Shown here in pieces: positions 4,116-8,452 of a stretch of 11,233 nucleotides of DNA. The position numbers and the translations under genes were made by a program. Source of the stretch: a virus; UHGV virus genome UHGV-0151101; one strand, written 5' to 3'. How positions within the stretch are numbered: position 1 is the stretch's first letter; each line of letters opens with the position of its first letter. The notes below the pieces were generated by a model that searched no databases, was not told the origin of the DNA, and saw nothing but the letters and a program-made list of their open reading frames with translations.

Positions 4116-4402
4116 GACTTAATCTTCCCCTCCTTCAGCAGTATCGCCTGCGTCCTGATCACGCCTTCGAGGTGGTAAAGTCTGGCGTCTTTGTTGTCGA
4201 GGTTATGGGTGCGTCGGTCGATTTCATCGTGACACGCGCTACAAGCCCATGCGCCGATCAGGTCGTCAGGCTTCATTCCCGTTCCGCAAATTCCAGCCAT
4301 CCGGTAATGTGCCAGAACTGTAGTTTCAGGATTACCATTGCATACGCCGTAAATACGTACCTGGCATTCTCTGCCGCGCGCTTCTTTGCGTAGGTTAGCC
4401 AT
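4112..4402 (-). CDS. DUF1364 / YbcO-like protein, 96 aa, Cys-rich putative nuclease
   Basis: 96 aa with Cys/His cluster CQVRIYGVCNG...AGICGTG...WACSACHDEID. Size and position upstream of rusA as for YbcO of prophage DLP12, from memory. Confidence 0.65.
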   Translation of the reverse strand: MANLRKEARGRECQVRIYGVCNGNPETTVLAHYRMAGICGTGMKPDDLIGAWACSACHDEIDRRTHNLDNKDARLYHLEGVIRTQAILLKEGKIKS

Positions 4403-4671
4403 TATGGTTCACTCCAGTAATTCTCAATTGCAGCAGCCATTCTCTGCATCCACTCAGCCAGCTTTAACGCGGCTTCTCTTTCAGAACCACATTTAGGGAA
4501 ATCCTTCATTTCCATGCTGGCCTTATATGTTCTGAATGCCAGGTCTCCGGTAATAACCAACTCCTGATCAAGCACCGAGCGTTTATTCCGGTGTTGAACG
4601 TAATAGACAGATTCAGTCCGCATTTCTTCTCTGTCTTTTTTGAAGGAAATAAGCTCAGAGAAATCACTCAT
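4402..4671 (-). CDS. Hypothetical nin-region protein, 89 aa
   Basis: Complete ORF translationally coupled on both sides: its start overlaps the ninF stop and its stop overlaps the YbcO-like start (TAATG). I recognise no homolog. Confidence 0.55.
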   Translation of the reverse strand: MSDFSELISFKKDREEMRTESVYYVQHRNKRSVLDQELVITGDLAFRTYKASMEMKDFPKCGSEREAALKLAEWMQRMAAAIENYWSEP

Positions 4672-6024: not shown

Positions 6025-7401
6025 TCATACGTCAGCCCCTTGTGCATATCGTCTGCCACGCGCAGCAGGTGCATTTGATGTTGTGCAAATCTGTCTGGCT
6101 TCATCCTGGTCACATGCAACAAAGTGTCCGTTGCAGAACCGCTGGTAAACCGTACCAAGCGAGCCAAAACGGTTTTTCGTCACAATGATTTCAGCAAATG
6201 GCGCGGCGCTACTGTTCTCGTCATATACCGCCTCCCGATAGAGCATGATGATTGAGTCTGCGTCCTGTTCAATGCTTCCTGAATCACGCAAATCTGCGTT
6301 TGTCGGGCGTTTATTTGGTCGCTTCTCAACATCGCGCGAAAGCTGACTCAGGGAGATTACTGGCGTTTTCAGGTCTTTCGCCATCGCCTTCAGGCTTCCG
6401 GAGATGTGAGCAATTGCGAGGTCGTTGCGATCTGCTTTCGGCTTCTCAATCAGGCCAAGATAATCCGCCATGATGAGTGAGAGGTTTGGATTTTCCTGTT
6501 TGTGCCGTTCTGCGATTGAGCGTATTTCTTCGACCGATAACCGCGAGGCATCGACCACCCATACATCCAAATCTGCAAGCTGACTCATTCCGTTAGCAAC
6601 ACGTGCCCAGCCCTCGTCATCCATCGATGCAGGATTTCGCAGTACGCTAACCGACATCCTCCCGGCGTTGGCAATGCTTCGCTCTGCGATCTGCAATGCG
6701 CTCATTTCCATCGAGAAAATCAACACTCCGCGCCGGACGTCAGAACCAGGAATAACGCGGCTTGCAACGCCTTCGGCAATCTTCAGCGCCAGTTCGGTTT
6801 TCCCCATACCAGGACGAGCAGCGATTATCACCAGGTCTTCCGCGTTCATCCCTCCGGTGATGGCATCAAGTTCTTCGATTCCGGTCTTCAGGGTATCTGA
6901 CTCTTCTCCGTTCCTCAGACGCCTGTCAAGCGTGTCAGTGTAGTCGGTGATGATTTCCCCTAACCGTACCGGTTTAACCTCGTCACGTGGCTTTCTGATG
7001 GCTGAAAGACGCTTTACAAGTTCATCCATCGCCTGACTCGATGCGTCGATGGTTCCGCTCTGAATTGGTTCACGCATTTCATCCATGATTTCCAGCACCA
7101 GACGGCGGTGATAGTTATCCGCGACCATTCCGGCATATCCCTTCAGGTTTGCGGCACTCGGGCAGTTTTTGCTGGTCATCAGGATTGACGTGAAATGCTC
7201 CTCTCCGCACGCCTCGGCAACCATCAGCGCGTCGATTAGGTTTCTGTTTCTCGCCTGCTTGCGGATAACCTCGAAGGCTTTCCGGTAGAGCGGAATTGAA
7301 AACGCTTCCGGCTCCAGCGTTGCCAGAACGTCACTGGCAGTTGGTGTTAATCCACCAATCAGCAAGCCACCGATAACGCTCGCTTCGATATCCTGTCTCA
7401 T
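6025..7401 (-). CDS. Replicative DNA helicase, DnaB family, 458 aa
   Basis: Walker [16 protein letters not shown] and helicase motifs ([15 protein letters not shown]). Resembles the phage-encoded DnaB-type helicase of P22 (gene 12) by recall. Start overlaps the O-like stop. Confidence 0.9.
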
Positions 7402-8219
7402 GCAATCCCCCTGTCTGCAAACTTCCCTTCCCGTACTCCCGTTAACGAATCTTCCCTCAGCAGGTAATCAAAATCTGCCGTCCAGCCAGTGTCGTTGTCT
7501 CCGAAGTAAAACGGCTTGGCCTGATGCACAAACGCCCTGACATACGCTCTGAAACCGTCCACGTTTGGCGTTTTCAGTTGCGGGATGATTTTCTTCAGGC
7601 GGCGTTTGCGTTTCTCGTTGACCGCAACAGCGTGTGGCAGTCTGTCACCGACTTCGGTGTTGTAGGCGTTCAGGAAGGATTCATAGTCGATTCGTTCTGC
7701 CTTGCGACGTTCAGGTTTAACCTGCCCATCGCCGCCCCCGTTAGGGGGTAAGGGGGTATTTGTATTTATTGTCTTTTGTATATTGTCTTTTGTGTTTAGC
7801 TGACTTGGCTTATACCCATTAGCCGACTTGGCTAATGTTTTATTAGCTGTTTTAGCTAATGTTAAGCTGTCCTGGCTAATCCACTGAGAAACCACCTTGT
7901 TCACTCCGATTTTCACGCCATCAGCAATGAGGAATTTACGCTCGATAAGCTGGCGCTTGGCAGCGCAAACATGAGTGTGATGAATACCTGTCATGGCTGC
8001 TATCTGCGTGTTTGTGAGTCGATCCATCGGCTTATTGAATCCGTATGTCTTGCGCATGATAGCGAGCATCACCTTCAACTGCCGGACGGTTAAATCAGCC
8101 ATCAGCAGACTGTCGGTAATCTCGTTAGCAACGCGCATGAAACCATCTTCGGTATCTGCCACGCGATGCTCCACGACCTCCAGTTGAGGCCTGTAATCAG
8201 CTAACTTAACGACGCCCAT
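7398..8219 (-). CDS. Replication initiator, lambda O-like, 273 aa, with the origin inside the gene
   Basis: Position after cII. N-terminal DNA-binding region, central low-complexity linker ([47 protein letters not shown]) encoded by iteron DNA, C-terminal domain. GGAG lies 7 nt upstream of the start. Confidence 0.85.
7756..7880. repeat. Replication origin: four ~19-bp iterons plus an adjacent AT-rich tract
   Basis: Iterons at about 7796-7814, 7819-7837, 7843-7861 and 7862-7880 (TTAGCTGACTTGGCT, TTAGCCGACTTGGCTAATG, TTAGCTGTTTTAGCTAATG, TTAAGCTGTCCTGGCTAAT). AT-rich 7757-7795 holds a 12-bp direct repeat ATTGTCTTTTGT at 7768-7779 and 7782-7793. Same layout as lambda ori inside O. Confidence 0.65.
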
Positions 8220-8367
8220 GTTTCACTCCTGCTTTGGCTAGTCTGTAAACACCAACAAGGCGCTCTGCGAACGCCCTGTTATTTGCTGCGGCTACCACTA
8301 ATCCCTCAGGTGAATCAGGGTGTCGAATCTCTTCTTTTTCCTGGTATTTCTTACGACGTTTTGTCAT
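8206..8367 (-). CDS. Possible small basic protein, 53 aa, between cII and the O-like gene
   Basis: Hand translation [57 protein letters not shown] 5 nt upstream of the ATG; 3' end overlaps the O-like start by 14 nt. No homolog recognised. Confidence 0.3.
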   Translation of the reverse strand: MTKRRKKYQEKEEIRHPDSPEGLVVAAANNRAFAERLVGVYRLAKAGVKHGRR

Positions 8368-8376
8368 AATTACTCC

Positions 8377-8452
8377 TGTGGATTGATCCAGTAATTCCCT
8401 CAGAATTGCATATCAATTTGCTTAAAATCCTCGGTGGCGGCCGGGGATTTTT
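8377..8452 (+). ncRNA. Candidate oop-like antisense RNA covering the cII 3' end
   Basis: CATAAT -10-like hexamer at 8365-8370. Weak A/T-rich stem AAAATCC / GGATTTT (8424-8430 and 8445-8451) then a T-run, antisense to the cII codons for KKSPAATED, the same relative position as lambda oop. Predicted length about 76 nt. Confidence 0.35.

Follow-up and report, generated by a model that had tools for sequence, protein, structure and literature searches.

A probable lambdoid replication origin of the HK97 specificity type inside the initiator gene of a mosaic phage genome

The closest described counterparts of the locus considered here are the replication origins of the lambdoid phages. In lambda, the iterons, which have the form ATCCCTCAAAACGAGGGA, are annotated at 39034, 39054, 39078 and 39101, i.e. 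with a spacing of 20/24/23 bp that is the same in P22 and in the DNA described below, and an inverted repeat to the right of the AT-rich tract is a defining feature of the origin. In the P22 record (BK000583), a rep_origin feature annotated as "similar to phage lambda" lies at 32840..32984, within gene 18, and this feature corresponds to about 7735-7879 of the DNA analysed here. According to the phage L paper, gene 18 of P22 holds four repeats of ~20 bp that are of its own type. A lambda hybrid in which only the P22 orf48-18-12 segment replaces O-P replicates and, moreover, escapes a lambda-blocking dnaB allele (PMC3349717), so that a P22-type origin has to be contained within that segment and the module has to be independent of the P-DnaB interaction. 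Variation is seen also in the number of iterons: the Stx phages of the lambda type (933W, P27) carry six of them inside the O gene, the iteron number altering the length of the protein linker (PMC7466680). HK97 is listed by Casjens and co-workers as a separate origin-binding specificity, distinct from those of P22 and lambda (PMC2629481, Table 1).

Here we describe a locus of this kind in a stretch of viral DNA of 11,233 bp (UHGV virus genome UHGV-0151101; this whole stretch is hereafter called the window). The gene for an initiator that resembles lambda O and P22 gp18 is preceded, on the same strand, by a 53-aa gp53-like ORF, cII, and a P22-type cro, with the gene of a LexA-like cI repressor in the divergent orientation; directly downstream is the gene of a DnaB-type helicase that is 90% identical to P22 gp12 at the amino acid level, and farther downstream are the nin genes, Q, holin, lysin, Rz, and a KilA-N gene. 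From this gene order, the window can be recognised as the part of a lambdoid phage or prophage that extends from the early right region to the lysis genes, in reverse orientation. In the sense direction, the initiator gene consists of the N-domain coding region, four iterons, an AT-rich tract, a GC-rich element, and the C-domain coding region (Table 1). With a probability that we put at roughly 0.9, this central part of the gene is the vegetative (theta-type) replication origin of the phage or prophage, of the HK97/ST104 specificity type, embedded in the gene of its own initiator. The likeness to lambda ori extends to the homologous N-domain, the four dyad iterons, the homologous AT-rich tract, and an inverted repeat at an equal distance. 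The first-pass annotation of this DNA had proposed the canonical lambdoid layout, and the location within an O-like gene, the 20/24/23 spacing, the homology of the AT-rich tract, and the position of the P22 rep_origin feature all agree with that proposal.

Table 1. Positions of the probable origin components and associated genes in the window
Feature	Positions	Strand	Sense sequence	Basis or details
Initiator gene, O-like / P22 gp18-like, 273 aa	7398-8219	minus		ORF; Pfam Phage_rep_O
Coding region of the predicted N-terminal origin-binding domain, aa 1-113	7881-8219	minus		Pfam boundary; motif TGIHHTHVC at aa 77-85
Iteron 1, first in the direction of transcription	7863-7879	minus	TTAGCCAGGACAGCTTA	frame 1, peptide ISQDSL
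Iteron 2	7843-7859	minus	TTAGCTAAAACAGCTAA	perfect 6-bp dyad arms; frame 0, peptide LAKTAN
Iteron 3	7819-7835	minus	TTAGCCAAGTCGGCTAA	consensus copy; frame 0, peptide LAKSAN
Iteron 4	7796-7812	minus	TAAGCCAAGTCAGCTAA	touches the AT-rich tract; frame 2, peptide (Y)KPSQLN
AT-rich tract, presumed DNA unwinding element	7757-7795 (39 bp)	minus	ACACAAAAGACAATATACAAAAGACAATAAATACAAATA	two copies of ACAAAAGACAAT, period 14 nt
GC-rich element right of the AT-rich tract	7735-7756	minus	CCCCCTTACCCCCTAACGGGGG	contains the inverted repeat CCCCC-TAAC-GGGGG, 7735-7748
DnaB-type replicative helicase gene, 458 aa, presumed partner of the initiator	6025-7401	minus		Pfam DnaB_C and DnaB N-terminal domains

The Phage_rep_O domain of Pfam covers residues 19-113 of the initiator (E 5.8e-33). 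Residues 17-149 are 42% identical to lambda O, and the resemblance to lambda O is limited to the N-terminal 149 residues; the identity to P22 gp18 amounts to 51% over 259 aa, with the C-domain included. The C-domain of lambda O is unrelated to that of the initiator in the window, and the partner of lambda O is P, a loader of the host DnaB, whereas the module in the window encodes a DnaB-type helicase of its own. In both the gp18-like C-domain and the gp12-like helicase gene immediately downstream, the locus conforms to the P22 gene 18/12 type. The stop codon of the initiator gene overlaps the start codon of the helicase gene (ATGA, 7398-7401), which suggests translational coupling; coupling is suggested also at the other end of the gene, where the 53-aa ORF (8206-8367) overlaps the initiator start by 14 nt (8206-8219). 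Two database proteins, of 446-474 aa, consist of this initiator (97-99% identical) joined to PF16532; these may be products of gene calling or real fusions.

The structure of the initiator was modelled with AlphaFold, which without an alignment gave an uninformative model (mean pLDDT of 38.7) and with an alignment of 48 sequences one with a mean pLDDT of 52.5. In the latter model (mean pLDDT 52.5), the N-domain contains helices at residues 45-60, 70-77 and 81-93 followed by a beta hairpin at 97-106, and the C-domain is helical; this order of elements in the N-domain is the one expected of a winged helix-turn-helix and, as such, is suggestive only. A Foldseek search of the PDB gave no match at E <= 0.001; all the matches were weak (E >= 0.05), and nearly all of the top 50 were winged-helix regulators of the MarR, CRP/FNR and IclR families. 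Sequence searches of the PDB with the full protein and with a profile of the N-domain yielded no match even at E <= 10. The lowest-confidence stretch of the model, residues 107-175, is the one encoded by the origin. Since the listed homologues are all at least 70% identical, the underlying alignment is shallow, so that neither the winged-helix topology nor the disorder of the linker is more than suggestive. It had been claimed previously that the iterons encode a flexible linker. They start at codon 114, right after the Phage_rep_O domain that ends at residue 113, and the encoded segment is hydrophilic and differs in length between relatives; together with the low confidence of the model in this stretch, this makes a flexible linker plausible.

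The iterons have the form TTAGCC-N5-GGCTAA and are 17-19 bp long. They start at nucleotides 341, 361, 385 and 408 of the gene and are thus spaced by 20/24/23 bp in the gene sense. A repeat search recovered a 16-nt core in four copies (7798-7813, 7821-7836, 7845-7860 and 7865-7880), spaced by 23/24/20 on the plus strand. In the whole 11,233-bp window, the consensus TTAGCYGNNNTGGCTAA is matched with at most one mismatch only at 7796, 7819, 7843 and 7863; with up to three mismatches allowed, there are 8 matches as against 1.47 expected, a count that none of the 200 dinucleotide-preserving shuffles of the window reached. Outside the origin, the consensus is represented by a single weak site (4395-4411, three mismatches), i.e. 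at the chance level. Accordingly, the four ~19-bp iterons reported for this DNA at the outset stand, coordinates included. The dyad symmetry attributed to each of them is fully developed only in the inner two, which are strong dyads with 6-bp arms and single-strand fold z scores of -4.6 and -2.6, the dyad of iteron 3 reaching 19 bp (ATTAGCC...GGCTAAT); the outer two are weak dyads, with about four of the six arm positions complementary and fold z scores of -0.6 and +0.3. A terminator-like call at iteron 3 on the plus strand was rejected as a terminator: the signal arises from the dyad and the T-rich spacer after it, on a strand that runs antisense to the operon.

The variation of the iterons was traced in 80 IMG/VR loci that encode relatives of the N-domain, supplemented with additional phage records. 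The iteron half-sites co-vary with a short motif of the N-domain, and three pairings were found among the relatives of the window, P22, and other phages: IHHTHVC or KHHTHC occurs together with TTAGC..GCTAA, MAPTKC (in P22, TGMAPTKCS) with TTTACC..GGTAAA, and ILPHKC (TGILPHKCS) with TTACCC..GGGTAA. All the proteins with TGIHHTHVC, down to ~57% identity of the N-domain, are accompanied by TTAGC..GCTAA iterons, which in nearly all cases show the 20/24/23 spacing. The P22 iterons, TTTACC-N5-GGTAAA, differ from the TTAGCC-N5-GGCTAA of the window at symmetric positions of the arms, and this difference, together with that between the N-domain motifs, predicts a different origin specificity for the two phages. 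In the best explanation of these data, the origin specificity would be set by the iteron half-sites together with the TGIHHTHVC motif. The previous proposal that the iteron sequence defines the replication specificity fits both this co-variation and the typing in PMC2629481, but the specificity is not peculiar to this phage, being that of the known HK97 type. The number of iterons varies among the relatives (Cronobacter phage phiES15 and others), from three to at least five, and in some of them the 20/24/23 array is extended by extra copies; each additional copy lengthens the linker of the initiator, as in the six-iteron Stx phages. Those phages, 933W and P27, combine lambda-type iterons with O and P proteins, as opposed to the four HK97-type iterons and the helicase partner seen here. 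The same module of N-domain and iterons is found joined to unrelated C-terminal domains, the partners being a DnaB-type helicase, a lambda-P-like loader, or an AAA ATPase, while the core of the AT-rich tract is unchanged across all these combinations. One N-domain/iteron module with varied C-domains and partners is what the classical modular picture of lambdoid origins would lead one to expect, with the mosaicism operating at the level of domains inside one gene.

The AT-rich tract adjoins the last iteron and, as had been stated before, follows the iterons in the direction of transcription, which is confirmed by the order of the elements in this minus-strand gene and by a GC content of ~20% over 7757-7795. 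The composition of 7756-7795 is 26 T, 7 G, 5 A and 2 C; in 40-nt windows over the tract, the GC content is 22-37%, compared with 47.6% for the whole window. Of all the 30-60-bp stretches in the window, the tract is the third to fifth least stable, ~3 standard deviations below the mean stability. The 12-bp tandem repeat that was noted earlier in this tract is real as far as the 12-mer is concerned: on the plus strand, ATTGTCTTTTGT occurs exactly twice, at 7768-7779 and 7782-7793, with 0.12 occurrences expected and one of 200 shuffles reaching two. It is not a strict tandem, since the copies are 2 nt apart and thus form a near-tandem direct repeat with a period of 14. After iteron 4, lambda has ACACAAAAGACACTATTACAAAAGAA where the window has ACACAAAAGACAATATACAAAAGACAAT. 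The ACACAAAAGACA...ACAAAAGA tract is homologous to that of lambda and is present in all the relatives examined, whatever their iteron type or C-terminal partner, and, as in lambdoid origins, the tract that carries the conserved ACAAAAGA motifs comes directly after the last iteron. Segment by segment, the identity to P22 is 59% for the N-domain DNA, 58% for the iterons, 40/40 for the AT-rich tract, 87% for the GC-rich element, and 61% for the C-domain. The tract can best be explained as a generic module that would be common to all lambdoid origins. As an island of perfect identity between flanks of ~60% on both sides, it also has the look of a crossover point, or mosaic joint, at which the specificity module meets the partner module.

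To the right of the AT-rich tract, the GC-rich element contains an inverted repeat that is a positional analogue of the GTCAGAG...CTCTGAC following the AT-rich tract of lambda. When related origins were grouped into types by the flank sequence right of the tract, five of the six sequence-distinct types showed an inverted repeat of at least 5 bp at 43-47 nt from the start of the tract, with the arms CCCCC/GGGGG, GTCATC/GATGAC, CCCAC/GTGGG, TCTGC/GCAGA and, in lambda, GTCAGAG/CTCTGAC. The chance of such a repeat at this fixed distance is 0.04-0.09 per type, a significance that is overstated to some degree because the positional window of 40-50 nt was picked after the data had been seen. Given that the origin types encode different peptides at this place, the symmetry is a property of the DNA. 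We take the repeat at 7735-7748 as the probable counterpart of the right-hand inverted repeat of lambda; the full origin would then occupy about 7735-7880, slightly more than the 7756-7880 delimited before. A bolder joint proposal, namely, that the inverted repeat is an origin component selected for its structure (possibly, to mark a boundary or the point of entry in helicase loading) and that the pairing of N-domain residues 79-85 with arm positions 3-4 of the iterons constitutes a predictive recognition code, is speculative and, in our judgement, would probably fail as a whole. Neither the inverted-repeat component nor the code was found in the literature searched, which covered little of the older work on lambda.

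The functioning of such an origin can be envisaged by homology with lambda O and ori and with the P22 gene 18/12 module, from which the steps of initiator binding, unwinding, helicase delivery and origin activity in vivo are borrowed. Dimers of the initiator would bind the four dyad iterons via the N-terminal winged-helix-like domain, reading the TTAGC/GCTAA half-sites. The four sites, about two helical turns apart (20/24/23 bp), would be wrapped into an "O-some" which, on supercoiled DNA transcribed from pR, could destabilise the adjoining AT-rich tract at 7757-7795. The gp18-like C-domain would then bring the phage's own DnaB-type helicase, the gp12-like product of 6025-7401, onto the opened DNA. 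This would be a route different from that of lambda, where P hijacks the host DnaB.

Several other readings of the same elements have to be weighed against an origin. The repeats could, in principle, reflect nothing but a repetitive or low-complexity peptide linker (LAKxAN), with no cis-acting role of the DNA, and indeed iterons 2 and 3 share frame 0 and encode the similar LAKTAN and LAKSAN within a segment that is hydrophilic and modelled with low confidence. However, iterons 1 and 4 show the same DNA motif in two other frames and encode the unrelated ISQDSL and KPSQLN. With one motif thus read in three frames (1, 0, 0, 2), the repeats are repeats of DNA, and a peptide repeat is excluded as their source. 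The pattern of conservation follows the dyad half-sites rather than the codon positions: in 43 distinct origin sequences of the same type, the information content is 1.71 bits per position in the arms, compared with 1.22 in the five central positions and 1.17 in the spacers between iterons, and the polymorphisms among close relatives fall in the iteron centres. The more distant relatives in phages of Klebsiella and Yersinia retain 76-81% identity over the iteron segment, as against 64% over the adjacent N-domain coding DNA, so that the iterons are conserved better than their coding surroundings. Finally, the iterons are spaced exactly as in lambda, where the record annotates them as O-binding sites. 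The peptide reading is thus largely refuted by the frame analysis, and we give it hardly any credence. A slightly better chance, albeit a very small one, can be granted to the view that the AT-rich tract is perfectly conserved because recombination has recently created a joint there, at a mosaic boundary, and not because of selection for an unwinding element. The identity island does lie exactly between reassorting modules, the N-domain and iterons having been combined with at least four C-terminal or partner types, and the lambda record places misc_recomb sites immediately to the right of the lambda AT-rich tract. Yet lambda and all the divergent relatives, in which the flanks cannot be aligned, retain the ACACAAAAGA..CAAAAGA core, and this demands a long-term constraint. 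Besides, the two views are compatible, as a conserved element would be also a natural site of crossover.

More serious, although still very improbable, is the suggestion that the iterons are initiator-binding sites with a mainly regulatory role (autoregulation, titration, control of copy number, or recognition of their structure by defence systems of the host), with replication starting elsewhere. Iterons of plasmid systems serve also in copy control; moreover, ChIP-seq of OLD and of LmuB, a component of Lamassu, shows enrichment at the lambda iterons in the course of replication. Against this reading stand the complete, contiguous anatomy of the lambda type (iterons, homologous AT-rich tract, right-hand inverted repeat), the replication that the P22 orf48-18-12 segment alone confers on a lambda hybrid, and the rest of the window, which offers the one weak, chance-level consensus site as its only other candidate. 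We therefore favour the lambdoid origin. The assignment to a plasmid iteron origin of the Rep_3 (RepA/pi) type was considered and discarded, as Phage_rep_O was the only domain detected and the iterons lie inside the gene, not beside it; the system in the window would work like an iteron origin but is not a member of the Rep_3 family.

The assignment of this origin to the HK97 type follows from direct comparison. By DNA, the initiator gene is 99.1-99.4% identical to gene O of HK446 and of HK97 (99.1%) and to the counterpart in HZ41, and ~98.8-98.9% identical to the genes of the Stx phages 1717, 2851 and Nil2 and of several P22-like phages of Salmonella. Compared with HK97, the N-domain DNA is identical at 338 of 339 positions and the iterons at 85 of 85; by the criterion used in PMC2629481 for the N-domain (at least 92% identity to HK97 gpO), taken together with the identity of the iterons, the locus belongs to the HK97 specificity type. 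Over the 221 bp of 7700-7920, the identity is 100% to HK97 and 99.5% to gene 18 of ST104, and HK97 gene O (gp54) lies, like its counterpart in the window, between a gp53-like ORF on the upstream side and the gene of a DnaB-like helicase on the downstream side. In HK97, HK446, ST104, 1717, 2851 and Nil2, the origin is essentially without difference from that described here, the rest of the window being another mosaic. The 221-bp segment is found in 398 of 5,426 complete E. coli genomes (~7%, coverage of at least 80%), with 384 records matching at 99% or more. Hence, as judged from comparison of sequences, the origin appears to be real but already known, with a textbook layout and an exact sequence that is present in HK97 and in hundreds of genomes, and it opens no new biological question. 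The description shows where the origin would lie in a replication module that is very common among prophages and is shared by those of E. coli, many P22-like phages of Salmonella, and Stx2 phages, in the records of which the origin is usually left unannotated; in particular, the records of HK97, ST104, 2851 and mEp213 contain no rep_origin feature. For the origin of HK97, the literature search found indirect statements only; no paper giving the exact iteron strings was found in a search that largely did not extend to the older lambda and HK97 literature, and for the HK97-type iteron variant, no footprint, origin cloning or mapping of replication starts was found in the literature searched. Knowledge of the iteron type of a prophage is of practical use because replication of Stx phages drives toxin production (PMC7466680) and because, as reported in recent papers, the Lamassu and OLD defence systems associate with the iterons of lambdoid origins during replication.

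Beyond the origin itself, the whole window is a new mosaic, no phage record covering more than 67% of it (megablast: CUS-3, 67%; Kapi1, 64%; HK97, 55%). In phage Kapi1 (1290-1425 of the locus compared) and many Stx2a phages, the C-domain is 99% identical to that of the initiator in the window, but the N-terminal part is unrelated; the ~57% DNA identity between the N-domain regions of the window and Kapi1 was dismissed as alignment noise, these domains not being homologous. The repeats of the Kapi1 type, CATCATGTGCGGTTGTTTGTGCGG, are translated as a segment rich in AHD/AQTTAH and presumably represent another origin specificity type.

Two further structured segments were noted near the origin. 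At the start of the C-domain coding region lies an imperfect palindrome of 29 bp, GCGACGTTCAGGTTTAACCTGCCCATCGC (7704-7732), and the 37-nt strand across it (7700-7736) has a fold z score of -3.2; since only the inner AGGTT..AACCT is kept in P22 and other relatives, the palindrome may merely reflect the KPE(R/K)RK peptide. On the plus strand, at 8424-8451, there is a strong terminator-like hairpin followed by a T-run, antisense to the 3' end of cII. A scan of the whole window with Rfam gave no family at the gathering score, 8424-8451 included. The hairpin lies at the place of the oop RNA terminator in lambda and P22, and the P22 record annotates the oop promoter and terminator at the equivalent position.
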